The notes: generated by a model from the sequence alone, not told the origin. Numbered from the stretch's first letter, positions 35,316 to 64,000 are shown. The stretch: DNA of 64,000 bases from an uncultured Bdellovibrionales bacterium (GCA_964468125.1 CAYXVF010000004.1:26605-90604); one strand, 5' to 3'. Translations and numbers: made by a program.

Positions 35316-35333
35316 TGTCAAGTACAATTGACG
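35316..35333. promoter_or_regulatory. Candidate PpsR/CrtJ-type operator TGTCAAGTACAATTGACG upstream of the aerR-like gene. A second palindrome TACACTAGGGAGTGTA lies at 35346-35361.
   Basis: Matches TGTc-N10-gAC(G) in an AT-richer promoter region. The same TGTCAA half-site recurs at 60767 and 59323. Confidence 0.45.
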
Positions 35334-35495
35334 TCTGGACTTCTTTACACTAGGGAGTGTAGGTGTAGAAAGGGAGAGGAAAGGCGCTTAGGAATCAACT
35401 TGAGGCTCTCGACGACACGTGATTGGGTTGACCCGCTTTCAACTGCGCGCAGCGGACGCAGTAGGGGCCGAAGCGCACGCAATACGGGGGACAAT

Positions 35496-36329
35496 ATGTC
35501 GTCGAGCAGCACGGGCTCGGAGGAGCGCGAACGCCAACGTCAGGAGCTCACGCGCACGATCCAGGCGGAAATCATTCCGAGACTCATGCTCGCCCACCGG
35601 GTCGAGCCACCGCCGCGAGTCGTTCCCCGCAATGAAGTCGCCCCGAGCGACCACTTGGACGTAGATGCGTTTGCAAAGCGCCTACGTGAGCCATCCCTCG
35701 CCGGGGCGCTCGCGCAGGTCGCCGAGCTGCGAGCAAATGGACTGGACTTGGAGTCCCTCTTTCTCGACCTCCTGGCTCCCGCCGCCCACCTCTTGGGTGC
35801 GCAGTGGGAGCTCGACGAGGCCAGCTTCACCGACGTGACGGTGGGGCTCACGCACCTGCAGCACGTGGTGCGCGAGCTGGCCCCCGCATTCGAGCTCGAA
35901 GGTCATTTCCCCGGCATCGGCCACCGCGCGGTCTTAGCCCCCGCGCCGGGCGATCAGCACGTATTTGGACTCATCCTCCTCGAGGAATTCTTCCGTCGAG
36001 CGGGTTGGGACGTGCTGGGCGCCGCGGCCTCCGAGGAAGTCGATCTCGTCGAGCTCGTCCGCGAGGACTACGTCGCATTGGTAGGTTTCAGTGTCGCCGA
36101 TCCACGATCGATTCCCGCCCTCGGAACCCTCATCGGGGAGCTGCGGGCAAAATCGGTCAACCGAGATCTGCTCGTAATGGTCGGCGGACACTGTGTGTTG
36201 GAGGACCCTACTCTCGTCGAAACTCTGGGTGCGGACGAAACCGGACGCACCGCTTTGGACGCAGTGAACAATGCGAACCGGCGCCTCGCCGAAATCGCAT
36301 TGATGGCCACTGCGTCGAGTGAGGTCTGA
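35496..36329 (+). CDS. aerR: Cobalamin (B12)-binding domain protein without a DNA-binding domain, AerR/PpaA-like putative antirepressor of PpsR.
   Basis: B12-binding helical N-domain, then a Rossmann-like domain with the DxHxxG motif (GDQHVFGL) and ...LVGFS...MVGG. Sits immediately upstream of ppsR as in purple bacteria. ATG at 35496 is downstream of the track start at 35328. Confidence 0.65.
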   Translation: MSSSSTGSEERERQRQELTRTIQAEIIPRLMLAHRVEPPPRVVPRNEVAPSDHLDVDAFAKRLREPSLAGALAQVAELRANGLDLESLFLDLLAPAAHLLGAQWELDEASFTDVTVGLTHLQHVVRELAPAFELEGHFPGIGHRAVLAPAPGDQHVFGLILLEEFFRRAGWDVLGAAASEEVDLVELVREDYVALVGFSVADPRSIPALGTLIGELRAKSVNRDLLVMVGGHCVLEDPTLVETLGADETGRTALDAVNNANRRLAEIALMATASSEV

Positions 36330-37746
36330 CGCCGTGCACGGAATGCTCTCCGAAGAGTCCTTGGGAGCCCTCGACCTCAAGGTCGTCGCGGAGGTCATTT
36401 CTGCGTCCACCGACATCGCTTTGATCCTAGAGCCGGACGGCGTCATTCACGACGTCTCGATCCATCCGTCACACCGGAACGATCCCCGCTTTCGAGGGTG
36501 GGTGGGGCAGCCGTGGATCGAAACCGTCGCGAACGACAGTCGCCCGAAGGTGGAAGCGCTTCTCAGGGAGGTAAAAGACGACGAGCACGTCCGCTCCCGG
36601 GAGATCAATCACCGCTACGAGGGGCTGGATGATTTCCCTGTCCGCTATTCAGCGATGGCCCTCGGCAAGGATGGGCAAATCCTAGCGATCGGCCGCGAGC
36701 TCGGCACCGTTGCGAACCTTCAGCAGCAGCTCCTGAACGCCCAGCAAGCGATGGAGCGCGAGTATGCGCGCCTTCGCAGCGCCGAGACGCGCTACCGTTT
36801 GCTCTTCCAGATCTCTTCGGAGGCGGTGCTGATCGTCGATGCCTCCAACCTCCGGATCGCCGAGGCGAATCCCGCCGCGCTCGAGCTCGCTACACGAGGC
36901 CGGGAGCGCGTCGACGGCCGCGCCCTTTCCCAGGTGTTCGACGCGAGCAGTGTGGAGCTCGTCACCGAGCTCTTGAAGAGCACGCGGACGAGCCGCACCG
37001 GGAGCGCGCCGGAGCTCACCGCGCGCCTCGCCCGCGACCTGGAAGAGGTCTCGGTTTCAGCGACCGTCTTTCGACAGGGCGCGAGCGCCTATTACCTGCT
37101 GCGGCTCGCGCCGCTGAAGGTCGGAATCGAGCCCTCGGCGACGGAAGAAGAATCGCGCCTCTTGGAGGTCCTCGAGAGCCTTCCGGACTCCTTCGTCGTG
37201 ATCAACGACGAGCGTCGCATCATGAGTGCCAATGCGGCCTTCTTCAATCTCGTTCAGGTCGCCACCGAATCGCAGGTGCTCGACCAGCCGCTCGACCGCT
37301 GGGTGGGAAGGCCTGGCGTGGACCTGAACATCATGCTCGCCAACCTGCGCGATCACGGATCGATCCGAAACTTCGCTACGGTGGTTCAGGGTGAGCTCGG
37401 GGTGACGGAGCAAGTCGAGATTTCCGCTGTCGCGGCCAAGAACGGCGAGGAGCCCTGCTACGGCTTCATCGTCCGCACGGTGCAGGGGACCGCCGCTCTC
37501 GATCCCGCGACGAGCGACTTGCCGCAATCGGTGCAGCAGCTCACCGGGTTGGTCGGCCGCGTGTCGCTCAAGGAAATCGTTCGTGAGACGACGGACGTGA
37601 TCGAACGGCTCTGCATTGAAGCCGCCCTGGAGGTCAGCGGCGGCAACCGTGCCTCCGCGGCGCAAATTCTGGGCTTGAGCCGCCAGAGCCTCTACTCGAA
37701 GCTGCACCGCCATTCATTGTCGGGCCCAACCGAGGAAGACGCGTGA
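36319..37746 (+). CDS. ppsR: PpsR/CrtJ-family photosynthesis transcriptional repressor (multiple PAS domains plus a C-terminal Fis-type HTH).
   Basis: PAS-like repeats and C-terminal HTH ALEVSGGNRASAAQILGLSRQSLYSKL. 475 aa, within the typical PpsR length range. Gene order aerR-ppsR-bchG. Confidence 0.75.
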   Translation: MRSDAVHGMLSEESLGALDLKVVAEVISASTDIALILEPDGVIHDVSIHPSHRNDPRFRGWVGQPWIETVANDSRPKVEALLREVKDDEHVRSREINHRYEGLDDFPVRYSAMALGKDGQILAIGRELGTVANLQQQLLNAQQAMEREYARLRSAETRYRLLFQISSEAVLIVDASNLRIAEANPAALELATRGRERVDGRALSQVFDASSVELVTELLKSTRTSRTGSAPELTARLARDLEEVSVSATVFRQGASAYYLLRLAPLKVGIEPSATEEESRLLEVLESLPDSFVVINDERRIMSANAAFFNLVQVATESQVLDQPLDRWVGRPGVDLNIMLANLRDHGSIRNFATVVQGELGVTEQVEISAVAAKNGEEPCYGFIVRTVQGTAALDPATSDLPQSVQQLTGLVGRVSLKEIVRETTDVIERLCIEAALEVSGGNRASAAQILGLSRQSLYSKLHRHSLSGPTEEDA

Positions 37747-38657
37747 TGGTCGCAGTCGAAGCCCATGCGCGGCCGCAGCGCTCGCTCCCCGAGCCCACAG
37801 CACTGCTCCAGCTCCTCAAGCCAGTCACCTGGTTCCCGCCGATGTGGGCCCTTGCCTGCGGGTTCGTTTCCGCCGGCGGGCCTCTCCTGTCACGCTGGCC
37901 CTTCGTGGTCGGCGCCGTGCTCCTCGCCGGTCCGTTCATGTGCGGCACGAGTCAGGTGGTCAATGACTGGTTTGACCGACACGTCGACGCCATCAACGAG
38001 CCGCACCGCCCGATTCCCTCGGGTCGCGTCCCGGGTCGCTGGGGCCTCTACTTCGCGATCGTCTGGTCCGCGGTATCGCTCGTCGTGGCGTTCCTTCTCG
38101 GGACTTGGATCTTCATCGCGTCGAGCGTGGGAATGGTGCTCGCCTGGATGTACAGCGCCCCCCCCTTCCGCCTGAAGCAAAACGGCTGGCTCGGCGCGAC
38201 CGCCGTCGGCTTTTCCTACGAGAGCCTGCCCTGGTTCACCGGCGCGGCGGCCCTGACCGTGAGCTTCCCGGACTGGAAGATCCTGCTGCTCGCCCTCGCC
38301 TACGGCGTCGGCGCCTTCGGCATTCTGGTGACGAATGACTTCAAGGCCCTCGAGGGAGACCGAAAGCTCGGTGTGAGTTCCGTACCGGTGCTTCTCGGGG
38401 TCAAACCCGCTGCGTGGCTCGCGGTGCTGGTGATGATCCTGCCGCAATTCGTGGTCGTAGGGTCGCTCCTCGCCTGGGGCCGGCCGATCCACGCGGCGAT
38501 CATCGGTGTCTTCATCGCCATTCAGATCGGACTGGCGTCTGCTTTCGTCAAAGATCCTAGAGGAAAGGACGTGTGGTTCAACGCGACCGGCATTCCGCTC
38601 TCCGTGCTCGGAATGATGGTCGCGGCTCTCGCTGTGCGAACCCTGGGGGGGGTTTGA
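37743..38657 (+). CDS. bchG: Bacteriochlorophyll synthase (UbiA-family prenyltransferase).
   Basis: Signature NDWFDRHVDAINEPHRPIPSGRV and a polytopic membrane topology. Overlaps the ppsR stop. Confidence 0.85.
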   Translation: MMVAVEAHARPQRSLPEPTALLQLLKPVTWFPPMWALACGFVSAGGPLLSRWPFVVGAVLLAGPFMCGTSQVVNDWFDRHVDAINEPHRPIPSGRVPGRWGLYFAIVWSAVSLVVAFLLGTWIFIASSVGMVLAWMYSAPPFRLKQNGWLGATAVGFSYESLPWFTGAAALTVSFPDWKILLLALAYGVGAFGILVTNDFKALEGDRKLGVSSVPVLLGVKPAAWLAVLVMILPQFVVVGSLLAWGRPIHAAIIGVFIAIQIGLASAFVKDPRGKDVWFNATGIPLSVLGMMVAALAVRTLGGV

Positions 38658-38658
38658 G

Positions 38659-40011
38659 ATGAGTGGGTTACGTGAGTGGATTTTGATCCTGAGGCTGGGG
38701 CTCGTTCAGACCGCCCTCGGCGGCATCGTCGTCCTCTGCCTCTCCGTTTTTAATCGAGTGATGACCGTCGAGCTCGCGCTCGCAGCGACGATTCCGGGCG
38801 CCCTGGTGACGATTCACCACGTGGTGCAGCTCAGTCGACCGCGCTGGGGCTACGGCGCAGACGTCGGTGGGCGGCGGACGCCGTGGATCATCGGCGGCAT
38901 GGCGGTGCTGGCGTTAGGGAGTGTGGTGGCCGCGGCTGCGACCGCGCTCTCGGCGGGAAATCTCACCTTGGGCCTGGTGATCGGAGTCGTCGGCTACCTG
39001 TTGATCGGGGTCGGGGTAGGCGCCGCGGGGACAAACCTCCTCGCGCTCCTCGCCTGGGGCGTGAGCCCAAACCGTCGGGCGGCGGCCGCCGCCACTGTCT
39101 GGCTGATGATGATCGTCGGGTTCATCCTAACGACAGCGATTACCGGTGCACTCCTCGATCCCTTCTCGCTCGGTCGCTTGATCAGCATTACGAGCGGTGT
39201 CGCGGGACTGAGCTTCGTGCTCTCGCTCGTCGCCATTCTCGGGGTCGAACGCGCCTTCTCACGGGCTCGCGGCGCCGAGAAGACGGCCGAGGAGAACAAG
39301 CCCGCCTTCAAAGAGGTCTTCGTGGAGATCTGGGCCGACCCGAAGGCGCGCGCATTCACGATCTTCGTCGCCGTCGCGATGCTCGCCTACGGCATGCAGG
39401 ACCTCATTCTCGAGCCCTTCGCGGGTAAAATCTTTGGCCTCAGCCCCGGTGAGTCGACCCAGCTTTCGAGCAGCCAGTACCAAGGAGCCTTCTTCGGGAT
39501 GATCCTCGCCGGCGCCCTCGCCGGCCGACGCGGCGACCGATTTGGCTCGATCCGCGCCTGGACGTTCGGCGGTTGCGCATTCTCCGGCATCGCACTGATC
39601 GGACTCGCGATGGCGAGCTTCTTTCCGCAGTGGCCACTGCGCGAGAACGTTCTCGCCCTCGGGTTCTTCAACGGCATCTTCGCGATCGCCGCGATCAGCT
39701 GGATGATGACCCTCGCAGGCGGTGGCAAGACCCCGCGCGAGGGCAGTCGCATGGGCCTTTGGGGCGCGGCGCAGGCCGTGGGGACCTCCCTCGGAGCGTT
39801 CCTCGGGGCATCGAGCGTCGACGTCGTGGGACTCGCGACGAGCGCGGATCCAGCGACACCCTTCGTAACGGTCTTTGGTCTAGAAGGCGTCATCTTCATT
39901 GCGGCGGGTTTCTATGCCCTCCGCATGGAGCGCACGTCACACATTCAAAACAACGAGCTGGGGGCGACGAACGCATTGACGCTCGCCGCAGCGGGAGGGG
40001 GTGAACCATGA
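38659..40011 (+). CDS. PucC/LhaA-family (BCD) MFS membrane protein, the orf428 equivalent between bchG and bchP.
   Basis: 450-aa 12-TM MFS-like protein located between bchG and bchP, as in Rhodobacter. Confidence 0.7.
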   Translation: MSGLREWILILRLGLVQTALGGIVVLCLSVFNRVMTVELALAATIPGALVTIHHVVQLSRPRWGYGADVGGRRTPWIIGGMAVLALGSVVAAAATALSAGNLTLGLVIGVVGYLLIGVGVGAAGTNLLALLAWGVSPNRRAAAAATVWLMMIVGFILTTAITGALLDPFSLGRLISITSGVAGLSFVLSLVAILGVERAFSRARGAEKTAEENKPAFKEVFVEIWADPKARAFTIFVAVAMLAYGMQDLILEPFAGKIFGLSPGESTQLSSSQYQGAFFGMILAGALAGRRGDRFGSIRAWTFGGCAFSGIALIGLAMASFFPQWPLRENVLALGFFNGIFAIAAISWMMTLAGGGKTPREGSRMGLWGAAQAVGTSLGAFLGASSVDVVGLATSADPATPFVTVFGLEGVIFIAAGFYALRMERTSHIQNNELGATNALTLAAAGGGEP

Positions 40012-41192
40012 GTCGCGAACAATTCGACGTCGTCGTCGTAGGGGGAGGACCGGCGGGCGCCACCGCCGCTCACGAGCTGGCCGAAAAGGGCCGGAGTGTG
40101 CTGCTGCTCGATAAACCGGGCCGCATCAAGCCCTGCGGAGGGGCGATTCCCCCACGGCTGATCCGCGACTACGAGATCCCTCAGAAGCTTCTGTGCGCGC
40201 GCATCAGCTCCGCACGGATGGTCTCGCCCACAGACCGCACGGTCGACATGCCGATCAATGGCGGCTACGTCGGCATGGTGAACCGCGAGGTCTTCGACGA
40301 GTTTCTGCGGGTCCGCGCCGCGGAAGTCGGCGCCGATCGACGGGACGGCAAATACCTGCACACCGAGCGAGATGCGGATGGGACCGCGGTCGTCGTGTAC
40401 CGGCCAGAGGGAGCGAGCAGCGAGGTCAAGATTCGCACGCGTCTCATCATCGGTGCAGACGGCGCAAAATCGCAGGTCGCCAAACAACTCGTTGGCGGAC
40501 CACCGGTGCCCTGCGTCTCCGCCTATCACGAGATCGTCGAGGCGCCGGAAAACCTCTCGGACCTCTACGATCCGAGCCGCTGCGACGTGATCTACAAGGG
40601 CGCGATCAGCCCGGACTTCTACGGTTGGGTCTTCCCGCATGGAGGGACCGCGAGCATCGGGACCGGAACGGCGGTGAAGGGCTGGTCGATCAAGGGAGCC
40701 ACGCGCGATCTTCGCGCCGCGGCCGGACTGAGCGACGCCAAGACGATTCGAGTGGAAGGCGCGCCGATCCCGATGAAGCCGCGCAAGCGCTGGGACAATG
40801 GGCGTGACGTGATCCTGTGCGGAGACGCGGCCGGCACGGTTGCACCGGCTTCAGGCGAAGGCATCTACTATGCGATGTACGGCGGCAGCTGTGCCGCGGA
40901 AGCGGGACACGCCTTTCTCAACTGTGACAACCCAGTGGCACTTAAACATGCCCGTAAGAAGTTCATGAAGCACCACGGGCGCGTGTTTTGGGTCCTTGGG
41001 ATCCTTCAGCGCTTCTGGTACAGCTCGGACAAGCGGCGCGAACGCTTCGTGAGCATCTGCCGCGATGAGGACGTACAGGACCTCACTTGGCAGGCATACA
41101 TGAACAAGGAGCTCGTCCGCGCCAAGCCGGCGGCGCACATGCGGATCTTCTTCAAGGACATTGCGCACCTCATGGGGCTCGTTTCGCCCTAG
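40008..41192 (+). CDS. bchP: Geranylgeranyl-bacteriochlorophyllide / GGPP reductase.
   Basis: FAD-binding N-terminus FDVVVVGGGPAGATAAHELAEKG and the conserved LIGADGAKSQVAK, GDAAGTVAPASGEGIYYAM. Confidence 0.9.
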   Translation: MSREQFDVVVVGGGPAGATAAHELAEKGRSVLLLDKPGRIKPCGGAIPPRLIRDYEIPQKLLCARISSARMVSPTDRTVDMPINGGYVGMVNREVFDEFLRVRAAEVGADRRDGKYLHTERDADGTAVVVYRPEGASSEVKIRTRLIIGADGAKSQVAKQLVGGPPVPCVSAYHEIVEAPENLSDLYDPSRCDVIYKGAISPDFYGWVFPHGGTASIGTGTAVKGWSIKGATRDLRAAAGLSDAKTIRVEGAPIPMKPRKRWDNGRDVILCGDAAGTVAPASGEGIYYAMYGGSCAAEAGHAFLNCDNPVALKHARKKFMKHHGRVFWVLGILQRFWYSSDKRRERFVSICRDEDVQDLTWQAYMNKELVRAKPAAHMRIFFKDIAHLMGLVSP

Positions 41193-41198: not shown

Positions 41199-41465
41199 GT
41201 GACCGAGTGGATCGAGAGCGGTGACTACCTCTGGTTTATTCTCGGGGTCGTCGTGGTCGAGGCGCTCGCGCTCAGCGTGGCGTCACGCCGAGTCTCGGGC
41301 TCCCTGACTGTCGTCGACGTCATCTTCCAACTCGCGGCGGGTGCGTTGCTGCTTCTCGCGGTTCGTAGCGCACTCATCGATGAGCCCTGGGCGGCCCTCG
41401 CCTTCGTCACCGCGTCGCTGCCCGCACACCTGGCGGATCTCTACCGCAGGTGGTCACAGGCGTAG
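41199..41465 (+). CDS. Small two-TM membrane protein downstream of bchP (hypothetical).
   Basis: 7-nt gap after bchP, so likely co-transcribed. Two hydrophobic helices. Confidence 0.4.
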   Translation: MTEWIESGDYLWFILGVVVVEALALSVASRRVSGSLTVVDVIFQLAAGALLLLAVRSALIDEPWAALAFVTASLPAHLADLYRRWSQA

Positions 41466-41469
41466 CGGC

Positions 41470-42249
41470 TCAGGGTTTCGCGAACAGCTCCGGGTCGAAG
41501 CCGTTGTTGAACTTCAGGTCCTTCATGGTCTCGAGCGTCCATTTGGCTTCGCTCGCGACGTTTCCCTCCCAATCGGAGGCGGTGTACTTGCGCTGAGTGG
41601 GGAGCTTTACGCCGTCTAAGTCTTCGTACTCGACGGTCATGAGCAGCGGCTCGCTGCGACCGAAGGCCATGACCGTGAACAAGAACCGATCAACGAGCTT
41701 GGTTTCGGGGTGAATGTAGAGGACATAGGCGTCCTTCGCGTCCCCGACTCCGTCTTTGAAGCCGATCGTCACGACCTCGTAGTCGACTCCATCGACTGAG
41801 CGCGTTCCTTCGTATCGGTAGGTGACCCCGGGATCCGCGAGCTTTTGCATCATCGCGAACCAGTAGAAGTTCGTCTTGCGGCTGAATCGTGCCCGGCTCA
41901 GCAGCGCCTCATCGTCACGAGGGCTGCCGTCGACGGTGACCCAAGCGGAGCGTCCGTCGAAGCCCTGGATCAAAACGCCTTCGAGGTCCGGCGAGGTCAC
42001 GCCTCGCTCGAGAAACTTCGCCCAGGACAGCTCGCCCGCGAAGCGATAGCGTTCGAGAGACACATCACGATCGCCACTCGCTCGCTCGTAGACATAGGTG
42101 TACTCGACATCTCGTTTCTCTCGCAGCTGCTCCATCGGTCCTACAGTCTCGATCATCTCCATGACGAGCGCCTTGCCTCGCACGCTCGTTGGCTCTGCGG
42201 CGACGAGCGTAGAAAGAGCGAGTCCACACGCGGAAATTGTGTTCATCAT
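41470..42249 (-). CDS. Secreted hypothetical protein with a signal peptide.
   Basis: N-terminal MMNTISACGLALSTLVAA leader. No recognisable catalytic motif. Confidence 0.5.
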   Translation of the reverse strand: MMNTISACGLALSTLVAAEPTSVRGKALVMEMIETVGPMEQLREKRDVEYTYVYERASGDRDVSLERYRFAGELSWAKFLERGVTSPDLEGVLIQGFDGRSAWVTVDGSPRDDEALLSRARFSRKTNFYWFAMMQKLADPGVTYRYEGTRSVDGVDYEVVTIGFKDGVGDAKDAYVLYIHPETKLVDRFLFTVMAFGRSEPLLMTVEYEDLDGVKLPTQRKYTASDWEGNVASEAKWTLETMKDLKFNNGFDPELFAKP

Positions 42250-43946: not shown

Positions 43947-44156
43947 GCCATCGCGCCCCAGGTTTTCCCGCGATTCTGGGCCAAAAAACTGGTGTTTGGG
44001 CGCGAAAATCGATGACAGTTCGAATCTGCGCGCCTCGATTAAACATCAAAGGGTTGCGTGTGTCTCGACGACTTTACTGGTATGTCGCTCGGGACGTTTT
44101 AGGCGCTTTGCCGGACTCATTCTGGCTAGGCGCATCATAGACAAGGGAGAAACATC

Positions 44157-46568: not shown

Positions 46569-46569
46569 G

Positions 46570-54602: not shown

Positions 54603-54785
54603 CTACGGTGAGCCAGGCATGGCTTGCGACGTTTGCCCCACCGAAGGGGTGCCGGCCGCGTCGAGCCAGTTGAACCGCTCAGTGCTGAGCAGCACAAAGT
54701 GAATGACAATCGCGAGTACGAAATTGAACGCCCAAAGAGCGACCAAATACGGACGCGGATCGAAAATCTTCCAGAATCTCCACAT
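54603..54785 (-). CDS. pufA: Light-harvesting 1 alpha polypeptide.
   Basis: [41 protein letters not shown], with the BChl-ligating His in the TM helix. 12-nt gap to pufB. Confidence 0.85.
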
Positions 54786-55095: not shown

Positions 55096-55371
55096 CTAAG
55101 CCCGGAAAACACTCCCGAGCGCGGTCTGAACCTCAACATGTGCTTCCCTAAACACTGATTGTCGAACTGGCTTGGCATTCCCGATGAATCCGCGGGTCCA
55201 GCTCCTAGGAAGGAGCCGCTGGACCACCACGTAGGGGAATACGAACGTCATCGCGATCACGTAGTAGAGCGATGACTCCACGATGTCGCCGAGCTTCCGG
55301 CGCGGAACGTGGAACAACGGGGCCTCTAGAGTGGCCCGACGCCGACTGACTGGGAGCGTGACTGCTTTCAT
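55096..55371 (-). CDS. pufQ: PufQ-like small membrane protein (position and architecture only).
   Basis: 91-aa ORF between bchY/Z and pufB. Single TM segment LYYVIAMTFVFPYVVV and a ...SVFRA C-terminus reminiscent of PufQ. Start overlaps the upstream stop (ATGA). Confidence 0.4.
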   Translation of the reverse strand: MKAVTLPVSRRRATLEAPLFHVPRRKLGDIVESSLYYVIAMTFVFPYVVVQRLLPRSWTRGFIGNAKPVRQSVFREAHVEVQTALGSVFRA

Positions 55372-57368
55372 GTGAGGCCTCCTCCTGCTTGGGCCACTGC
55401 GGACCCGTTCATTCGCTTCTTGGATTTACGCGCGGCCACTCGGGCCACGGTGACGCGACTGTCACCCTGGAGCTTCGCGTCGTGCTCAATCGTGTCGCGC
55501 AACGTCTTCGCCGCGGAGATGCGCGTGAGGACCGGCACCTCGCTCACCATCTCGTCGAGGAGCGCTTCGCAGAGCGCGCGACCATACTCGCGGTACATCA
55601 CGACGTTTACGTCGGCGTCCACGAGACGAGGCACCTGCGCGAGATGCGAACCCAGGGCGAAGACCATGTTGATCTCCGCCCCGATGCCTTCGACAAGGCG
55701 ACGGATCTCGGCGAGGTCACTCGGCATGTTGAAGTTGGAACCGGTCACCACCACGCTCGGCAGTGATGGGTCCAAAGCTTCGTGTGCGCGACGCATCGCG
55801 CCTTCGGTCCCCTTCTTCCCGAGCTCTTCCTCGGACGCGACGCCGGCCTTTTCGCCTGGCGCGTTCTTGGCGAGGCGAGCGCGTTTCGCTTTTTTACGGT
55901 CTGCCAATTGCTTCTTGCGAAACTTCTCGTCGTCTTTTGGAACGTCTTCCCAGATCCCCGAGGCATGCCCCGTGCCGACGCCGGAGAAGAAATCGTTCAT
56001 CGCGTCAAAGCGCGGCTTGCTCGCCATCGCTGCGTTCACGACCTGCGCGAGGGAGCCAGCCCCCGCGGGCCCCATCAGCGGGCGCGCGGAAATGAGGTTG
56101 GTGAAGTAGAGCGCGGGGGTGGCGCTTTCCTTCGCGGCCTGTACCACCGGCGTGGTTCCCACAACCAAATCCGGCTCGAATTCCTTCATCGCAGCGAGGT
56201 CCTGCTCGAGCGATGCACGGTACTGCACCTGCACGCCACGGGCCTTCAGCCACTCACTGTCGGCAGAAGACCACTCGGTCTTTGCACAGGCCGTCCCGAC
56301 GTAACGCACGTCCGCACCGCTCTCGATCAACAGGCGAGCAACGAGCAGCTCAGAGCCTTCGTAGCCGGACAACGTGATCCGCCCTTTGATGGGCATCCCA
56401 GCGAGCGCACCCTGGATCGCGGGCAGGATCGCGTTCTGCGCGGCGGCTATTTTCTCCGCGGAAACCCCCGCCTGCTGCCCCACGGCCTTCAGCCATTCGG
56501 CGGTGCCGTCGTGGCCCACCGGAGCAGAACCCACGATCGGCCGACCGGCAGCCGCAAACTCACGGAAGGTAGCGACATAGAACGGGTGGATCGCAGCCGC
56601 GACGGTGCAATCGAGCGCGGCATATTGCTCACGCCATTCGCGCGTGGGCACCACGGGCCCGGCGGCGAGCTCCATCGGGGCGAGCATGCGTCCGATGGTG
56701 ATGGGATCGACCGGGAACATTTCACCGACCAGCGCGACCGTCGGCAGCTTCGCATGTCCCTCGCGCGGCGCTTGGACGGGCCCAGCCTCCGCCTCTCTTC
56801 GAGCGTAGGCGAGCATGGCGCCGGCGAGCACGTCCTTGGCTTCCGCATGGGTCGGCACACCAAAGCCCGGGACGTCGATCCCGACGATTCGCACGCCATT
56901 GATCGTCTTCGGAAGCAGGCGCAGCGGCACCCCCGATGCGGTGGGAACACAGAGGTTGGTCACCACGAGCGCGTCGTACTTCTCGGGGTCCGCGAGGTCG
57001 TGAACCGCGTCGCGAATGTCTTCGAAGAGCTTGCCGGTAACCAGAGTCTCCGAATCAAACGGCACGTAGCCGACGGTGCGCCGAGCGCCATAGAAGTGCG
57101 ACGTGAAGGTGAGGCCGTAGACACAGCAGGCCGAGCCCGAAAGGACCGTCGCCGTACGACGCATGCGCAATCCGACGCGCAGGGAGCCAAAGGCGGGGCA
57201 CATGCTCTGCGGCTGGTCGTGGGGGCCAACAGGATAGTCCGCGGCGTAGCGATCGAGCACATCGCTCTTGCCCGCTGCGGCGGCGGCTTCACGCAGCTTC
57301 TCTCGCCCACCATGGCAGCCACTTTCTGTGGCGTTCTTTGCCTCGACGCTCGTCACTTTCGTTCTCAC
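55368..57368 (-). CDS. bchY: Chlorophyllide a reductase subunit Y, fused in frame to a short remnant of subunit Z.
   Basis: N-terminus GCHGG...PQSMCPAFGSLRVGLRMRR...SGSACCVYGLTF matches BchY. The last ~130 aa carry BchZ-like blocks GTEGAMRRAHEALDPSLPSVVVTGS and NFNMPSDLAEIRRLVEGIGAEINMV. There is no separate bchZ: only about 2.0 kb is available for bchY plus bchZ, where about 3.0 kb is expected. Confidence 0.7.
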   Translation of the reverse strand: MRTKVTSVEAKNATESGCHGGREKLREAAAAAGKSDVLDRYAADYPVGPHDQPQSMCPAFGSLRVGLRMRRTATVLSGSACCVYGLTFTSHFYGARRTVGYVPFDSETLVTGKLFEDIRDAVHDLADPEKYDALVVTNLCVPTASGVPLRLLPKTINGVRIVGIDVPGFGVPTHAEAKDVLAGAMLAYARREAEAGPVQAPREGHAKLPTVALVGEMFPVDPITIGRMLAPMELAAGPVVPTREWREQYAALDCTVAAAIHPFYVATFREFAAAGRPIVGSAPVGHDGTAEWLKAVGQQAGVSAEKIAAAQNAILPAIQGALAGMPIKGRITLSGYEGSELLVARLLIESGADVRYVGTACAKTEWSSADSEWLKARGVQVQYRASLEQDLAAMKEFEPDLVVGTTPVVQAAKESATPALYFTNLISARPLMGPAGAGSLAQVVNAAMASKPRFDAMNDFFSGVGTGHASGIWEDVPKDDEKFRKKQLADRKKAKRARLAKNAPGEKAGVASEEELGKKGTEGAMRRAHEALDPSLPSVVVTGSNFNMPSDLAEIRRLVEGIGAEINMVFALGSHLAQVPRLVDADVNVVMYREYGRALCEALLDEMVSEVPVLTRISAAKTLRDTIEHDAKLQGDSRVTVARVAARKSKKRMNGSAVAQAGGGLT

Positions 57369-58399
57369 ACCTCGTCGTAGATGATTTCGAGTGAAGGCTT
57401 CTTGACCGCCTTCGCACCGCAGAGGTCCACGCTCGTTGCCGGCTCGAGTACGACATCGCGTCCCGTCGCGTCCGCGGCGAAGAGATCGAGAAGCTGGTCC
57501 TGGGTCAGCGGATTCGGATAGAGCGGCGGGCTCTCGGCGACGTTGACGCCGAGTGCCTCAAAGAGCGGGCCCCATCGACTGTCCGGTCGCCCGATGATCT
57601 CGTACATGCCGCTCTTGCGGCGAATGTCTTCGTCCGCAGGGATCGAAGCGAGGACCGGAATCCCGACAGTCTCCGCGAAAGCCTGCGCTTCGCCCGTGCC
57701 GTCGTCTTTGTTGACCACGATTCCGGCGACGCCAACATGGCCGCCGAGCCTTCGGAAGTAGTCCGCGGCAGAGCAGACGTTGTTGGCGACGTAGAGCGAT
57801 TGTAGGTCGTTCGAGGCGACGACGATCACCTTCTGGCACATGTCGCGGGCGATCGGCAGACCGAAGCCGCCACAGACGACATCGCCGAGAAAGTCGAGAA
57901 GCACGTAGTCGAAGTCCCAATCGTTGAAACCGAGCTTCTCGAGCGTTTCGAAGCCGTGAATGATGCCGCGTCCGCCGCAGCCACGGCCAACCTCCGGGCC
58001 GCCTAGCTCCATGGCGAAAACGCCGTCGCGCTTGAAGCAGACGTCGCCGATCTCGACCGCTTCGCCCGCGGCTTTCTTCTTGGCGGTCGTCTCGATGATC
58101 GTGGGGCACGCCTTACCCCCGAAGAGCAGGGAGGTCGTGTCGCTCTTGGGATCGCAACCGATCAGCAAGACCTTCTTGCCTTGCTGCGCCATCATGTACG
58201 ACAGGTTTGCGAGGGTGAAGCTCTTGCCGATCCCTCCCTTGCCGTAGATCGCGATGATCTGCGTTTCCTTCGTGGGTGCAGTGGTCACCGGCGGCGAGGG
58301 ATCCTGCGCTGCTTCGGCCTTCAGGTTGTCATCGATCTCTTTGATCGAAGTCGCGCCCTCGGCGCTCACCGGTCCAACGTTCATCCGTGTTCCCTCCAA
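57365..58399 (-). CDS. bchX: Chlorophyllide a reductase iron-protein subunit X.
   Basis: NifH-like P-loop IAIYGKGGIGKSFTLANLS and Cys ligands. 344 aa. Confidence 0.9.
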   Translation of the reverse strand: MEGTRMNVGPVSAEGATSIKEIDDNLKAEAAQDPSPPVTTAPTKETQIIAIYGKGGIGKSFTLANLSYMMAQQGKKVLLIGCDPKSDTTSLLFGGKACPTIIETTAKKKAAGEAVEIGDVCFKRDGVFAMELGGPEVGRGCGGRGIIHGFETLEKLGFNDWDFDYVLLDFLGDVVCGGFGLPIARDMCQKVIVVASNDLQSLYVANNVCSAADYFRRLGGHVGVAGIVVNKDDGTGEAQAFAETVGIPVLASIPADEDIRRKSGMYEIIGRPDSRWGPLFEALGVNVAESPPLYPNPLTQDQLLDLFAADATGRDVVLEPATSVDLCGAKAVKKPSLEIIYDEV

Positions 58400-59307
58400 T
58401 CCAACAGCATCTTGAGACAGCTCGGGTCCGTGAACGCGGCGCGATAGGCCTCGTTCGCGTCGTCTGCGGCTCGACGATGGGTGATCAGCTCATCCAGGCT
58501 CAGTGCGCCTTCCGCCACGAGGTCGTTGACCCGCACCAGGTCCTGCGGCTGCCATTCAGCAGCGATGCGGAAACGTGCCTCTTTCATGAAGGCGGGCGGA
58601 AAGGCGAAGTTGACGCGCTCGCTGTAGAAGCCGGCGAGAACGATCTCGCCCCCGCGCACGAGCGCGCGCACCAACGTATCGAAGATTGCGGAGTCGCCAC
58701 TGACGTCGACGATCACCCGATAGGTCGCTCGAGCGTCTTCATCCGGGTGTACGACGCGGTACCCCTGGGCACCGTTCGCTCGAATGGAATTGGTTTCCCA
58801 GACGGTGGGAGCGCCACCACGGGCCACCGCGAGGCGCGCGAGCAGTCGTCCCAGCACACCGTGCCCAACGATCAGATCTGGGATTTCGTCGGCGAGAGCA
58901 TGCTCGGCGGTCGCCGCGAGCGCGAGCAAGACACCCTTGTCTCCGAGACTCTCAGCGATTGGGATGACGCGATCCGCAGGGACGACCAGCGTGGATGCCG
59001 CGCCACCGAATAGCCCACGAACGTCTACGAAGCCGTTGGAGCCTGGGACAAATACCGTCGTACCATCGGCGATCCGCTCGTTGCCGCGTACGACCCGCCC
59101 GACGGACTCGTAGCCAGGTACCAGCGGGTAGCCCATTCCTGGGAAAGGCGGCATTTTTCCGGACCAGAGCAGCCGTTCCGTGCCGGTGCTGATGCCACTC
59201 CAGTCTACATCGACCACCACGTCACCGTCGCCCGGGGTGGTCAACGTGACGGGACTGAGTGTCAGGTGTTCCGGCTCCTGGAGCACCACTGCTTTGGCTT
59301 CCGTCAT
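58381..59307 (-). CDS. bchC: Bacteriochlorophyllide a dehydrogenase (zinc-type ADH fold).
   Basis: MTEAKAVVLQEPEHL...VDVDWSGISTGTERLLWSGKMPPFPGMGYPLVPGYE. Start at 59307 chosen by homology; the track ORF extends upstream to 59484. Confidence 0.85.
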   Translation of the reverse strand: MTEAKAVVLQEPEHLTLSPVTLTTPGDGDVVVDVDWSGISTGTERLLWSGKMPPFPGMGYPLVPGYESVGRVVRGNERIADGTTVFVPGSNGFVDVRGLFGGAASTLVVPADRVIPIAESLGDKGVLLALAATAEHALADEIPDLIVGHGVLGRLLARLAVARGGAPTVWETNSIRANGAQGYRVVHPDEDARATYRVIVDVSGDSAIFDTLVRALVRGGEIVLAGFYSERVNFAFPPAFMKEARFRIAAEWQPQDLVRVNDLVAEGALSLDELITHRRAADDANEAYRAAFTDPSCLKMLLDWREHG

Positions 59308-59322
59308 GGGTGTAAAGTGCAC

Positions 59323-59342
59323 TTGACACTCGCGAGTGTCAA
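59323..59342. promoter_or_regulatory. Perfect 20-bp palindrome TTGACACTCGCGAGTGTCAA 16 nt upstream of the bchC start codon. Candidate PpsR-type operator or -35 overlap.
   Basis: Self-complementary sequence sharing the TGTCAA/TTGACA half-site with the sites at 35316 and 60767. Confidence 0.45.
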
Positions 59343-59510: not shown

Positions 59511-60707
59511 TCAGATCCGCGTAGCGATCAGCAACTGTGTAAGCATCGGGCGTCGGGTCCGGATCCGACGTGCACCCACAAATCCGGCCGCACCGAGCAT
59601 GGCGCTGAGCTCTTCGGGGGAGCGTGGCCGGCCATGGCCCATCGCGAGCAGATAGAGACCGAAGTAGGCGTCACCCATGGGGAGGGCGCCGCGCGTTCGC
59701 GCCATCGGCTCGGCGAGGAGGAGAGTCCCACTTTTCGGCAGGGCCTGGTGGACGGCGCGCAGGATCTCCACCGCAGGGCCATCGTCGTGGTCGTGAATGA
59801 TGCGCACGAGGGAGACCACATCGGCGCCATTGGGGAGGGGATCGGAGAACAGATCGCCTCCCACGACCGTCGCCCGGTCATCGAATCCGTTCGCGGTCAA
59901 ACGTGCGCGTGCTCGCTCGGCGACCGCGGGGAGGTCAAAGAGCATCAGATCGAGCTCTGGGTGCGCCTGCGCCACCGCACTCAGGAACGCCCCTTCTCCG
60001 CCGCCGACGTCCATGAGTGTCCGGTGGCGACCGAGATCATAGGCTTCTAATACGTCGCCTGCAATGAATTGCTGGGACTCAGCCATCAGAGCGGAGTATT
60101 GGGCGACGCGCTCGCCGCCGAGGTCTCCAGGCGTCTCGCTGCTGGAGTAGGCCCAGAACTCGCCGAGCTCGGTGCTCGGCAGCTCGTTGCGCAGCAACGC
60201 CAAGGGATCGGTCAGGTCCCGGTAGAGCATCGGGTGGTGCTCGATCATTCGCGCGACACCCGGATTACCGCGCAAAGCCGCCCCGAGCATGCCCAAGCCG
60301 TAGGTGCGCGCACCGCGCCGCTGCAACAGACCCAACGACACCGCCGCGTCCAGGAGCCGCCTCATGTTCGCGGGCTTGATGTTCGCGCGACGAGCGAGCT
60401 CCCCAGCTTCGAGTGGCCCGTCGGCGAGCTGCTCGAAGAGGTCGAGGCGCACGCATGCGTAGAGCACCTGCGAATAAACGAACCCCGCGCACAAATCGAA
60501 GAGCTGCGTGGCCCGCCGAGTCGCGATCCAGCGAATAAACGGGAATCCGGCGGCCCAGCGCTGGAATTTCTCGCTCGCGAGTAGGCGGTTTCGAAGGGCG
60601 TGCCAGCGATCGACGAGCGCGCTCCACCCACTGCGACGTGGGACCAGCGCGCGATCGGCCGAAGTGGCCATCTCGGTGGGCTTGGCCTGATCCATGGGCG
60701 ATTTCAT
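59511..60707 (-). CDS. crtF: Carotenoid O-methyltransferase (demethylspheroidene O-methyltransferase family). Start codon uncertain.
   Basis: Class I O-MTase SAM motif LMDVGGGEGAFLSAVA and a dimerisation N-domain. Position upstream of bchC matches crtF. Confidence 0.7.
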   Translation of the reverse strand: MKSPMDQAKPTEMATSADRALVPRRSGWSALVDRWHALRNRLLASEKFQRWAAGFPFIRWIATRRATQLFDLCAGFVYSQVLYACVRLDLFEQLADGPLEAGELARRANIKPANMRRLLDAAVSLGLLQRRGARTYGLGMLGAALRGNPGVARMIEHHPMLYRDLTDPLALLRNELPSTELGEFWAYSSSETPGDLGGERVAQYSALMAESQQFIAGDVLEAYDLGRHRTLMDVGGGEGAFLSAVAQAHPELDLMLFDLPAVAERARARLTANGFDDRATVVGGDLFSDPLPNGADVVSLVRIIHDHDDGPAVEILRAVHQALPKSGTLLLAEPMARTRGALPMGDAYFGLYLLAMGHGRPRSPEELSAMLGAAGFVGARRIRTRRPMLTQLLIATRI

Positions 60708-60766: not shown

Positions 60767-60784
60767 TGTCAAGGCAGATAGACA
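60767..60784. promoter_or_regulatory. PpsR/CrtJ consensus operator TGTCAAGGCAGATAGACA in the divergent crtF / crtD promoter.
   Basis: Exact TGTC-N10-GACA, 33 nt upstream of the crtD GTG start. A half-site repeat TGTCAAG lies at 60811. Confidence 0.55.
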
Positions 60785-60816
60785 CTTAGACGCCTATTTC
60801 GGATTGGACGTGTCAA

Positions 60817-62340
60817 GTGAAACGGAAACGCGTGGCTGTTGTAGGTGCCGGGATGGGTGGGTTGGCCGCCGCCATCGACCTCTCTCGAGCAGGCCATGCG
60901 GTCACCGTACTCGAACGGCGCTCAGCACCGGGCGGAAAGATGCGCGAGGTGCAGGTCGGGGACGCGGCGGTGGATTCTGGCCCAACGGTTCTCACGATGC
61001 GCTGGGCCTTCGAAAACCTGTTTCGCGATGCGGGCGCGGCGCTCGGTGAGCGCGTGACCTTGCGCAAGGCGGACATTCTCGCGCGGCACGCCTGGAGCGA
61101 GACCGAGCGACTCGATCTCTTCAGCGACGACGAAAAGAGCGCCCACGCGATCCGAGAGTTCGCCGGTTCCGATGCTGCACAGGGCTACCTCGCGTTCCGA
61201 AAGCGCGCCCGGGAGATCTACGAAACCCTCGAACACACCTTCATTCGAGCTTCGCAACCGTCGCAGCTCGGCTTGGTACGGCGCTCCGGGGGTTTGGTCA
61301 GCCTGCTGAAGATCAACCCGTTCGAGAGCATGTGGAAGGAGCTCTCCCGCCACTTCGCCGATCCGCGTTTGCGCCAGCTCTTCGGTCGCTACGCGACTTA
61401 TTGCGGCTCGAATCCCTTCGAGGCACCCGCGACCCTGATGCTCGTCGCGCACGTCGAGCTCGATGGCGTGTGGATCATCGAGGGAGGCATGCAACGGCTC
61501 GCCGAAGCGATGGCGAAGCTCGCGGCCGAGCTCGGAGCGGAGATTCGCTATGACAGCGCGGTGGAAGAGCTCGAGCGCGAAGGAGGCAAGGTTCGCGCGC
61601 TCCGCCTTGAGAATGGGGAGCGCATCGAATGCGACGCGGCGGTCGTCAACGCGGCACCGTCGGCCCTAGCGCGCGGATTCCTCGGCGACTCCGTACGCGG
61701 TGCAACGCGCCCTCTCGCGCGCTCAATGCGGTCGCTCTCGGCGATCACCTGGACCCTTCATGCGAAAACCCGAGGCTTTCCGCTTGAGCGCCACAACGTG
61801 TTTTTCAGCCGCGATTACGAACGCGAATTCCGCGAAATCCTCCAGGAGCACCGATTTCCCTCCGAGCCCACGGTTTACGTGTGCTGCCAGGATCGAGGTC
61901 ATGGCTCGGTTCCGGATGGCGCGGAGCGATTGTTCATGATCATCAATGCCCCGCCAGTGGGTGACCAACACTCATTTTCCGAAGCGGAGATCGAAGCATG
62001 CAAGACGCAGACGTTCTCAGTCCTGGAGAGGTGCGGCCTGACGATCGAACCGGGACCGACGGTGGTCACGACACCCAACGACTTCGAGGCGATGTTTCCC
62101 GGGACCGGCGGGTCGATCTACGGGATGGCGACGCACGGCTCGCGCGCGTCGTTCAAACGCCCGAGCTCTCGAAGCAAGATCCCGGGGCTCTACTTCGCGG
62201 GCGGGGCGACACACCCGGGAGCGGGTGTGCCGAATTCGACCGTATCCGGCCGGCTCGCCGCGGCCGCGGTGCTGGAAGACTTCGATTCGACGTCCTGGTG
62301 GGCTCCCGCGGATATTCGTGGTGGTACGTCGACGCTCTGA
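60817..62340 (+). CDS. crtD: Carotenoid desaturase of the phytoene-desaturase family (CrtD-like hydroxyneurosporene desaturase).
   Basis: FAD dinucleotide-binding motif VAVVGAGMGGLAAAIDLSRAGHAVTVLE. 507 aa. Adjacent to crtC. Confidence 0.75.
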   Translation: MKRKRVAVVGAGMGGLAAAIDLSRAGHAVTVLERRSAPGGKMREVQVGDAAVDSGPTVLTMRWAFENLFRDAGAALGERVTLRKADILARHAWSETERLDLFSDDEKSAHAIREFAGSDAAQGYLAFRKRAREIYETLEHTFIRASQPSQLGLVRRSGGLVSLLKINPFESMWKELSRHFADPRLRQLFGRYATYCGSNPFEAPATLMLVAHVELDGVWIIEGGMQRLAEAMAKLAAELGAEIRYDSAVEELEREGGKVRALRLENGERIECDAAVVNAAPSALARGFLGDSVRGATRPLARSMRSLSAITWTLHAKTRGFPLERHNVFFSRDYEREFREILQEHRFPSEPTVYVCCQDRGHGSVPDGAERLFMIINAPPVGDQHSFSEAEIEACKTQTFSVLERCGLTIEPGPTVVTTPNDFEAMFPGTGGSIYGMATHGSRASFKRPSSRSKIPGLYFAGGATHPGAGVPNSTVSGRLAAAAVLEDFDSTSWWAPADIRGGTSTL

Positions 62341-63224
62341 GCGATGACGGACAACATGGACTGACCATAATTGGCTTCATCGGGAGCGTATTCTCACCCT
62401 ACTACGCCTGGACCGATTGGCGAGCTCCGGAGAATCACTGCGCGATCAACGTAGCCCTCTACGGCCCGCAAAGCCGCTGGGCCATGACCGAGCGCGGTGC
62501 AGCGAGCCTCGAGCGCGATAGAGACGAGCTTCGCGTGGGACCGAGCCACATGCGTTGGGAAGACGACGGCTTGACGATCGCGTTCGATGAGATCGGTTGT
62601 CCGCTGCTACGCCGGGTCAAAGGACGCGTGCGGGTGGAACCCGAGTGCGTAAACGAAGTTGGATTCGCGATCACCAATCGGCACTCCTGGTGGCCCATCG
62701 CGCCGAGTGCACGCGTCCGGGTCGAGCTCGACCAACCTTCGATGGCATGGTCCGGACACGGCTATCTCGACTCGAATTGGGGTACGGAGCCGCTGCAAGA
62801 GGGCTTTGTCGATTGGAACTGGTCGCGCACCGGCGACGACGACGGCACCTTCATCACCTACGACTGTCAGTGTCGTGACGGCGCAGAGCGTACGACCGCC
62901 CTCGCTTTTGCACGAGACGGTTCCCTCTCGAGCTTCGAGGCGCCCCCCATGCGGCCATTGAGTCGCACCTTTTGGCGTGTGCCGCGCCAGGGCCGCGGCG
63001 AGCAGGCACGGGTGGTGCAGAATTTGGAGGATACGCCGTTCTACACCCGGTCCATTCTCGAAACGGAGCTGATGGGGCGACCGGTGAGAGGCGTACACGA
63101 GAGCCTATCGCTCGATCGCTTCGCGAGTACCATCGTCCGGCTGATGCTGCCCTTCCGCATGCCCCGGAATACGTTCGCCGCTCGCGCTCTCACCGGCCGC
63201 ACGGGCGGCTCGCTCACGCGCTAG
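62298..63224 (+). CDS. crtC: Hydroxyneurosporene synthase (carotenoid 1,2-hydratase).
   Basis: Conserved WWYVDALSDDGQHGLTIIGFIGSVFSPYYAW block. The proposed GTG start lies inside the crtD 3' end, giving an overlap of about 40 nt. Confidence 0.65.
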   Translation: MGSRGYSWWYVDALSDDGQHGLTIIGFIGSVFSPYYAWTDWRAPENHCAINVALYGPQSRWAMTERGAASLERDRDELRVGPSHMRWEDDGLTIAFDEIGCPLLRRVKGRVRVEPECVNEVGFAITNRHSWWPIAPSARVRVELDQPSMAWSGHGYLDSNWGTEPLQEGFVDWNWSRTGDDDGTFITYDCQCRDGAERTTALAFARDGSLSSFEAPPMRPLSRTFWRVPRQGRGEQARVVQNLEDTPFYTRSILETELMGRPVRGVHESLSLDRFASTIVRLMLPFRMPRNTFAARALTGRTGGSLTR

Positions 63225-63394
63225 GCTGCGGCGAGTGAAATAGAGGTCGACGAGCGCGACCACGATCACCGAGCCAAAGGTCAACACGAGCTCGGCGATC
63301 ACGAAGACGTTACTGCCCATCGCAGCACCTCAACACGAGCGTGACCTCGAGACGCTGAGGTCGTAGTTCGGCCAGTCTCGGGCGAAGAGCAGGC

Positions 63395-64000
63395 TCACGG
63401 GGCGGTGCCGACGCTCTGTACGGTCTCGGAGATCCGTTCGACGTCGCTGTAGGGCAGATTGAGATACCGGGCGCCCATGGCTGCCGCAAGCTCTCGGGCT
63501 CCTTCCTGACTTCGCGCACCCGTATCGACAAAGAGTGTCGAGGAGCGTGCGCTCAGAAGTGCCCGGGCGGATGCGAGAGCGTCCTCGCGAGCCTGGGAGC
63601 GGCCGCGAGTCCCATCGCGGGCGACGTTTGCACGCCCATCGGTCATGAAGACCAGCACGGGTGTCTGTCCGCGACGCGCGCTGTCCTTGGCGAGGACCAA
63701 CCCCGCATCGATGCCGGCCGCGAGGGGCGTTGCACCTCCGCCGGGAAGGCCCGCGAGGATTCTCTTGGCTCGGACGAGGGATTTCGTTGGGGGCAGTACG
63801 AGCTTCGCCCCGTCGTCGCGGAGGGCGATCATCGCCACCTGATCGAGACGCACATAGCAGTCTGCGAGGACTCGTTCGACCGCGCCCTTCGCTTCGGCCA
63901 GGCGCTGCAGCGCCGCCGACCCGGATGCATCGACCACGAAGATCGTCGTGGTCTCCGTGCGCTCCTGGTAGCGGTGAATTCGAAAGTCATCCTTGCGGAC
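63395..64000 (-). CDS. bchD: Mg-chelatase subunit D, C-terminal vWA domain. The gene is 3'-complete and continues upstream beyond the right edge of the window.
   Basis: TTTIFVVDASGSAALQRLAEAKGAV...PTKSLVRAKRILAGLPGGGATPLAAGI...MTDGRANV (vWA MIDAS: DxSxS...T...D). The reading frame is open to position 64000. Confidence 0.8.
   Translation of the reverse strand, partial: VRKDDFRIHRYQERTETTTIFVVDASGSAALQRLAEAKGAVERVLADCYVRLDQVAMIALRDDGAKLVLPPTKSLVRAKRILAGLPGGGATPLAAGIDAGLVLAKDSARRGQTPVLVFMTDGRANVARDGTRGRSQAREDALASARALLSARSSTLFVDTGARSQEGARELAAAMGARYLNLPYSDVERISETVQSVGTAP

Follow-up and report, generated by a model that had tools for sequence, protein, structure and literature searches.

A photosynthesis gene cluster of purple-bacterial type in a genome assigned to Myxococcota combines intact genes with remnants of pufL, pufM, bchZ and bchF

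In this study, we analysed a stretch of 64,000 nucleotides (nt) from an uncultured bacterium (GCA_964468125.1, CAYXVF010000004.1:26605-90604; hereafter the window), whose right half carries a photosynthesis gene cluster (PGC) of the purple-bacterial type. We show that about 17 genes of this cluster are intact, including the 3' end of bchD. Four others, pufL, pufM, bchZ and bchF, are dead remnants, and the locus on its own can therefore provide neither a photosystem nor complete bacteriochlorophyll a synthesis. The sequence evidence assigns the host to Myxococcota. In the reading we favour, to which we give an even chance, the organism still relies on the intact genes, and another locus of the same genome provides what is missing. 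Since the intact genes seem to be constrained while the remnants decay, functional copies of the dead genes are probably located elsewhere in the genome.

Gene identities were assigned by profile hidden Markov models (NCBIfam/TIGRFAM and Pfam) and by tblastn with proteins of relatives' loci. For the puf and bch genes we compared the window with L083 (GCA_039026095.1, JBCCMZ010000001.1), a myxococcotal locus with an intact operon, and with L090, a contig of a sister lineage carrying intact pufL sequence. Of pufL (54462-54504, minus strand) only the first 43 nt are left, with CTG in place of the ATG start codon; the breakpoint of the deletion is a GGGGA microhomology located six bases ahead of the pufM ATG. 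The pufM pseudogene (53760-54455, minus strand) has kept its ATG and bears three lesions: a 7-nt deletion near 54370 causing a frameshift, a deletion of about 281 nt at about 54258 removing some 94 codons (approximately 70-163), and a change of GAG to a stop codon at 54015-54017. Its joined remnants reach 318 bits with TIGR01115 (cut-off 364). In terms of reaction-centre structure, the internal deletion takes out the end of helix A together with helices B and C. An assignment of the fragments at 53760-54378 to pufL was rejected; they are pufM. Three pieces of bchZ survive (55368-55835, minus strand), at 55737-55835, 55560-55736 and 55371-55559, which correspond to BchZ residues ~64-96, ~170-228 and ~437-487. 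About two thirds of the residues are gone, including the N-terminal 63, and the last junction falls between two 9-nt direct repeats. All three pieces are in frame with bchY and form with it a single open reading frame (ORF) of 666 amino acids, bchY-Z', which ends on the native bchZ stop and overlaps the start of the following pufQ-like gene (ATGA) as in L083. The bchF relic (34973-35281, minus strand), overlooked in the earlier note and situated just outside its coordinates, lies directly against the last of the caa3 oxidase genes and is divergent from aerR. It contains an in-frame stop (between ...MIK and TMSG...) and has lost its C-terminal third; tblastn gives 57% identity to BchF of the loci L001 and L023, and TIGR02020 scores 98.3 bits (cut-off 101.35, profile 2-98/145). 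The four genes were inactivated by deletions at microhomologies, one frameshift, two nonsense codons and the loss of a start codon. The genes bchNBHLM normally follow bchF, and the relic marks the former start of a bchFNBHLM superoperon.

The window falls short of a functional cluster for a type-II reaction centre (RC): an intact pair of pufL and pufM is missing, and puhA, puhBC, puhE and acsF are not found in it. Neither are bchNBHLM, crtE, crtI and crtB, and tblastn of the window with relatives' PuhA/B/C/E and AcsF (both from locus L087), BchM/L/H, BchO and CrtE gave no trace. The bacteriochlorophyll a branch is incomplete, with bchX, bchY, bchC, bchG and bchP intact and bchZ and bchF dead. 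It follows from the known pathway that the window locus alone cannot make the L/M RC core; the reduction of chlorophyllide a by BchXYZ and 3-vinyl hydration by BchF are likewise beyond it. The pufBA genes for light-harvesting complex 1 (LH1), carotenoid genes and the regulators PpsR and AerR with TGT-N12-ACA sites are all present. The gene list of the earlier note on this DNA needs correction in part: profile searches bear out aerR-ppsR-bchG-pucC-bchP, crtF-bchCXY, pufBA, pufC, crtDC, bchD and a high-potential iron-sulphur protein (HiPIP), and the pufL, pufM and bchZ that it also listed are dead.

The lesions do not look like products of assembly. Two Logan contigs, L088 (SRR7048221) and L089 (SRR7048222), are 100% identical to and collinear with the window along the bchY-bchZ' fusion and over each of the three bchZ junctions; they are independent assemblies of single Sequence Read Archive (SRA) runs and cover the bchZ junctions, not those of pufL and pufM. 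The lesions of pufL and pufM are of unrelated kinds (point changes, a 7-nt indel, microhomology deletions), and mis-assembly does not yield such a mixed pattern. L090 and a second Logan contig, L091 (SRR28370423 and SRR28089850), represent the sister lineage, with 89.3% nucleotide identity to the window over 1.1 kb. Both contain the 150 C-terminal codons of bchZ in intact form, among them sequence missing from the window, and both carry an intact 5' part of pufL (first 170 codons in L090), which starts 98 nt after pufA. Because the sister lineage keeps this bchZ and pufL sequence, the ancestor had a normal operon, and the lesions appeared on the branch leading to the window, after its split from the sister lineage. 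The sister population turns up in two unrelated SRA runs.

The intact genes give a different picture from the remnants. Four small disabling lesions (the bchF stop, the pufL start loss, and the frameshift and the stop in pufM) lie in about 1.5 kb of remnants. The intact PGC ORFs, about 15.7 kb in total, have no such lesion, where about 40 would be expected at the remnant density. Lesions confined to four genes do not fit a wholly relic, neutrally decaying cluster. The intact genes match their profiles or their L083 orthologues over the full length in a single frame. Relative-rate tests of the window against L083, with L087, L001, L023 and L086 as outgroups, were symmetric for PufC, BchX, BchC, CrtF, CrtD and PufA. 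For BchY they were symmetric with three of the four outgroups (L087 gave 23 v 8 changes, p = 0.011), and for PufB also with three of four, the fourth indicating excess change in L083 and no excess in the window. Rates were symmetric, too, between the window PufC and its 80% identical homologue P0128. The PufM remnant carries about 10 window-specific changes against 2, at sites that are otherwise invariant. Compared with L090, ratios of non-synonymous to synonymous substitution rates (dN/dS) were 0.045 for the pufQ-like gene, 0.26 for pufB and 0.02 for pufA, at dS values of 0.17-0.45; polarised counts for these three genes on the window branch were 19 synonymous and 7 non-synonymous changes. 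The spread of the lesions, the rate symmetry, the dN/dS ratios, the preserved ATGA overlap and the positions of operator sites indicate that purifying selection continued to act on the intact genes, in contrast to the drifting remnants.

We propose that the photosynthesis gene set is dispersed, with the rearranged and mosaic window locus making up one half of it, and that pufLM, bchZ, bchF, bchNBHLM, puhA and acsF most likely have their place in another part of the genome. The dead genes would then be scars of duplication or replacement followed by the loss of redundant copies. A candidate for a second locus of the same genome is a 23,014-bp NCBI contig, which may equally belong to a sister metagenome-assembled genome (MAG) and which carries both an intact PufL (P0247) and the PufC P0128. 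The protein collection contains no AlaS of 73-100% identity to that of the window, which is compatible with this contig lying in the same assembly and is not proof of it. A more specific version, in which the organism is still a phototroph with two complementary, partly redundant puf/bch loci that underwent reciprocal gene loss between operons, we put forward only tentatively. A second locus, possibly derived from a related myxobacterium (the P0247/P0128 contig), would have assumed the functions of pufLM, bchZ and bchF. Their native copies would then have decayed in place, and those of bchCXY, the pufQ-like gene, pufB, pufA and pufC would have been retained.

Several points weigh against a dispersed gene set. 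A second copy of pufLM, bchZ and bchF in the same genome is a deduction from the state of the window. The PufL P0247 shares only about 91% identity with its counterpart in the close sister L090 and so is not a recent duplicate, and the 23-kb contig may stem from a sister MAG. A complete second operon would make the intact genes redundant as well; the proposal therefore needs a complementary, patchwork second locus or a reason to keep both copies. The rate-acceleration signal consists of small counts (p about 0.02-0.09) and comes from the PufM remnant; the tests of the bchZ fragments and the bchF relic pointed neither way. The pufL and pufM junctions lie outside the independent Logan contigs, and the absence of the hydrogenase genes hupSL beside the hyp genes might be a sign that deletions have recently become more frequent in general.

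This last point leads to the most serious competing explanation, namely that phototrophy is being lost: the superoperon from bchF to puh would have been deleted, pufL, pufM and bchZ destroyed, and the other genes not yet hit. We consider this possible though doubtful. Loss in progress would fit four dead essential genes, the traceless absence of bchNBHLM, puhA and acsF in the window, the microhomology junctions, which are typical of neutral deletional decay, and the gap where hupSL would be expected next to intact hyp genes. The counts for the pufQ-like gene, pufB and pufA, taken alone, are compatible with very recent relaxation, and multiple independent losses have been proposed for Myxococcota (Li et al. 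2023, PMC10576062). It sits poorly, however, with the concentration of four small lesions and excess substitutions in the remnants, and with intact genes that show no acceleration, apart from BchY with a single outgroup. Moreover, none of the three bchZ deletions disrupts the reading frame or the overlap of the stop codon with the start of the following gene, and the operator sites are intact.

Purifying selection on the intact genes despite dead RC genes, and a bchY-Z' ORF that stays in frame, could also mean that the bchY-Z' fusion, LH1 and PufC have gained a role independent of the RC. We judge this very unlikely, since BchZ lacks most of its residues and the retained gene set makes up no coherent pathway; no function is known that BchX/BchY could have in the absence of BchZ, or LH1 in that of bacteriochlorophyll. 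Equally improbable in our view is an artefact, with mis-assembled deletions or a chimeric contig that joins a foreign PGC to a myxococcotal backbone. The source seems to be an unannotated draft or MAG contig, and the pufL and pufM junctions have no independent coverage; yet the bchZ junctions were reproduced in two per-run assemblies and the lesions include nonsense, indel, start-codon and microhomology changes. A chimera is further opposed by uniform GC content, by PGC genes that are themselves myxococcotal, and by Myxococcota-type genes both to the left of and between the PGC parts. We give almost no credence to the reading that starts from the earlier note, namely that this is an intact and functional PGC, newly found in Myxococcota, into which a foreign segment of 11 kb has been inserted; the lesions refute it for this locus. 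Its gene list was largely right and its host assignment holds, but pufL is absent, pufM, bchZ and bchF are pseudogenes, and the insertion can be explained otherwise (see below).

The assignment to Myxococcota is supported by the relatives of AlaS and PufC, a tree of BchX, BchY and BchC, the flanking genes and the absence of any sign of a chimera. The best named AlaS matches are MAGs labelled 'Myxococcota bacterium' (73, 60, 58 and 57% identity), and AlaS of Anaeromyxobacter and Archangium come next at about 52%. The nearest named relatives of PufC are all Myxococcota MAGs. A phylogeny of the photosynthesis genes had been suggested in the earlier note; in a neighbour-joining tree of BchX+BchY+BchC (67 loci, no bootstrap), the window pairs with L083, and the pair is sister to L002, L086, L009, L001 and L023, which comprise the tree's other Myxococcota-labelled loci and one unlabelled MAG. 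This myxococcotal clade stands apart from the Gemmatimonadota and proteobacterial groups. A recent horizontal transfer of the cluster from Proteobacteria was rejected, as the cluster groups inside the myxococcotal clade by both PufC matches and tree. BchY alone is taxonomically uninformative, being 77-82% identical alike to Alpha-, Beta- and Gammaproteobacteria, Gemmatimonadota and Myxococcota among the matches listed. Profile searches of the left half confirm the Myxococcota-type features on which the earlier note had relied: besides alaS it holds a PilZ protein, a large NAD-glutamate dehydrogenase, alternative complex III, the caa3 oxidase and a protein with an AgmX/PglI C-terminal domain (54 bits, cut-off 40), a domain tied by NCBI to myxobacterial gliding proteins. 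A PilZ (TIGR02266)-Ser/Thr kinase fusion sits between two photosynthesis segments. The two findings that could have overturned the assignment, AlaS falling in another phototrophic clade or a chimeric contig, did not materialise: AlaS places the host in Myxococcota, and GC content is even across the window (0.59-0.67) with myxococcotal flanks.

The left photosynthesis block runs on the plus strand. It begins with an aerR-like gene for a B12-binding regulator (35328-36329; Pfam B12-binding 48.7 bits, with weak matches to CarH and corrinoid proteins), whose true start is probably further downstream than 35328 and which lies directly upstream of the repressor gene ppsR (crtJ; 36319-37746; TIGR02040 436.8 bits, profile 2-442/442). 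These are followed by bchG, encoding bacteriochlorophyll synthase (37743-38657; NF005742 396 bits, TIGR01476 332 bits; the exact protein also occurs in a Logan assembly), by a gene of the PucC family of the major facilitator superfamily, LhaA-like (38659-40011; Pfam PUCC 292 bits), and by bchP for geranylgeranyl reductase (40008-41192; TIGR02023 497.6 bits, full length). The PucC-family protein is only 27% identical to the puhA-linked LhaA of L087. Directly 3' of bchP, at 41199-42249, are a hydrophobic ORF of 88 amino acids without family match (plus strand) and a DUF6503 protein (minus strand).

The genes from crtF to pufC all lie on the minus strand. The crtF O-methyltransferase gene (59511-60707; Pfam Methyltransf_2 154 bits plus Dimerisation domain) is 65% identical to the gene in the crtF position of L083, and its start is uncertain. 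The start of bchC (58381-59307; TIGR01202 430 bits) at the ATG 59307 yields an exact protein of the protein collection, as does that of bchX (57365-58384; TIGR02016 415 bits) at the ATG 58384, which has a GGAGG ribosome binding site upstream. The gene bchY (55836-57368) is the intact part of the bchY-Z' ORF (TIGR02015 709 bits, profile 1-422/422). In the position of pufQ is a membrane ORF of 91 amino acids (55096-55371), 58% identical to its L083 orthologue and 96% to that of L090 (4 of 91 residues differ). The pufQ of the earlier note thus stands as a conserved ORF in the right place and not as a member of the family: there was no Pfam match at E<=0.01, the PufQ profile included, and this apparently real, conserved gene is assigned by position only. 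It is followed by pufB (LH1 beta; 54798-55016) and pufA (LH1 alpha; 54603-54785), both intact and with orthologues matching Pfam LHC; a PufB identical to that of the window is found in two Logan assemblies. A stable hairpin 3' of pufA (54544-54582, minus strand; -43 kcal/mol, z = -2.47), the sequence of which is kept in L090, we take to be the classical pufA-pufL intercistronic stem-loop. Beyond the pufL and pufM remnants, pufC, encoding the tetrahaem RC cytochrome (52588-53763; NF040706 399.7 bits), is intact and has four CXXCH motifs. Its product (391 amino acids) lacks a C-terminal OmpA-like domain (PF00691), as does the closest homologue P0128 (394 amino acids); the PufC proteins of the next relatives L081, L083, L085 and L087 (494-512 amino acids) bear it, and the PufC-OmpA fusion seems to be common in this group of Myxococcota. 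On the other side of crtF, crtD (60817-62340; NF045637 680 bits, full length) and the carotenoid 1,2-hydratase gene crtC (62367-63224; NF045922 298 bits, cut-off 400, profile 1-274/278) lie on the plus strand, and the C-terminal ~200 codons of bchD (63395-64000; NF009943 300 bits, profile 386-581/585) on the minus strand, where the gene runs off the window end with its reading frame uninterrupted to base 64000.

Operator sites of the PpsR/CrtJ type, reading TGTCAAG...ACA, are found at the canonical promoters. The divergent bchF/aerR region contains the palindrome TGTCAAGTACAATTGACG (35316-35333; one mismatch to TGT-N12-ACA), a perfect TGT-N12-ACA palindrome lies immediately upstream of bchC (59311-59328), and the divergent crtF/crtD promoter region has two, at 60767-60784 (perfect) and 60811-60828 (one mismatch). 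Across the whole window TGT-N12-ACA occurs 5 times, with 5.07 expected by chance, so that only the positions at canonical promoters are informative.

Between bchP and pufC lies the segment that the earlier note described as an 11-kb non-photosynthetic insert at 41.5-52.5 kb. This description does not hold up. The segment contains the HiPIP gene (44157-44570, plus strand; Pfam HIPIP 38.3 bits, above cut-off; a weak TAT_signal match is below cut-off), whose product is a candidate electron donor to the RC and homologues of which immediately follow pufC in three Myxococcota loci (L001, L004 and L023). Starting 130 bp after pufC, a complete hyp operon outside the PGC proper (hypF-hypC-SIS-hypD-hypE-hypB plus a His-rich membrane protein; 44912-52457, minus strand) encodes HypF, HypD, HypE, HypB and HypC with NCBIfam scores of 746, 509, 462, 332 and 85 bits. 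It fits the pufC neighbourhood of the closest relatives L081, L083 and L085, which have the NiFe-hydrogenase genes hupSL downstream of pufC; linkage of puf and hydrogenase genes may be typical of their clade. By tblastn, no hupSL structural genes or remnants were detected in the window, and the ORFs examined in the 41.2-52.5 kb segment included no transposase or integrase. Because relatives have HiPIP and hydrogenase-related genes near pufC, this segment looks like a clade-typical neighbourhood with rearrangement and not like a foreign insertion. An ORF of 457 amino acids at 44046-45419 was discarded as spurious. Next to the HiPIP gene, an ORF of 81 amino acids (44685-44930, plus strand) matches only positions 82-138 of the GNAT acetyltransferase profile and is probably a truncated gene.

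In the PGC of Rhodobacter capsulatus and R. sphaeroides, as in the window, aerR/ppsR are divergent from bchF, there is a bchG-pucC-bchP block, crtD-crtC is divergent from crtF-bchCXYZ-pufQBALM, and bchD is convergent on crtC. PpsR/CrtJ operators of the form TGT-N12-ACA at the bchC and crt promoters and a hairpin after pufA are shared as well. Unlike the Rhodobacter cluster, the window has no crtE between crtD and crtF and no crtIB or tspO between crtC and bchD; it has pufC and the HiPIP gene, and the cluster is broken up and partly dead. Myxococcotal PGCs such as that of L083 agree with the window in host phylum and gene content and likewise have crtD divergent from crtF-bchCXYZ-(pufQ-like)-pufBALMC, with hydrogenase-related genes downstream of pufC in the window as in L081, L083 and L085. 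Identities to L083 are 89% for BchX, 83% for BchY, 80% for PufA, 79% for PufB and 65% for PufC. The window departs from L083-type clusters in the deleted pufL, the pseudogenes of pufM, bchZ and bchF, the PufC without OmpA-like domain and the missing hupSL. A bchP-lhaA-bchG block has been reported only for Ca. Kuafubacteriaceae (Li et al. 2023, PMC10576062). The adjacent bchG, PucC/LhaA-like gene and bchP of the window (37743-41192) resemble it and hint at a host in Ca. Kuafubacteria; in the window, this block with aerR and ppsR sits beyond the hyp genes.

PGCs in Myxococcota, for which the earlier note mentioned only a few recent metagenome bins, had already been described from 32 MAGs of six families; their genes were found to be monophyletic, and vertical inheritance with multiple independent losses was proposed (Li et al. 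2023, Nat Commun, PMC10576062). The window therefore does not extend the list of phototrophic phyla. What appears to be new is the mosaic state, in a lineage whose closest available PufC relatives are 65-80% identical; in the literature searched we found no report of PGC pseudogenes or of a mosaic of live and dead genes in Myxococcota. That one genome can contain RC genes in two copies is known from Citromicrobium sp. JL354, which has a complete PGC and an incomplete pufLMC-puhCBA set (Zheng et al. 2012, PMC3338782); the window differs in being a patchwork of live and dead genes with no integrative element visible. As a rule, the loss of a PGC is recognisable only because the genes are cleanly absent, an example being the close relative Citromicrobium JLT1363, from which phototrophy genes have been lost (PMC3338782), and the losses proposed by Li et al. 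were derived from patterns of presence and absence alone. Here the lesions are readable with their junctions and a sister lineage with intact genes is available, which makes the question of loss versus redistribution testable. Either phototrophy is run by dispersed and partly replaced gene sets, or the window represents an early stage of its loss. For MAG surveys that score partial PGCs, bch and puf markers are no guarantee of a working photosystem, as bchY, pufA, pufB and pufC look fine here and pufL is absent.

The remaining observations concern the window at large. No tRNA genes were found in its 64 kb, and an Rfam scan of it returned zero matches. AlaS (9539-12475, plus strand; 978 amino acids) is about 100 amino acids longer than the Myxococcia form (about 890 amino acids); the long form (about 980 amino acids) is common to the window and a set of Myxococcota MAG proteins and may mark a subclade. 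A protein of 1005 amino acids (4389-7406, minus strand), whose neighbours at 712-4392 are without family match, carries a HATPase_c_3 domain (GHKL ATPase) at its N-terminus as well as a transglutaminase-like core. The caa3 cluster contains two genes resembling cytochrome-oxidase subunit III (33104-33910 and 34290-34910, plus strand), with a membrane ORF of 117 amino acids between them.

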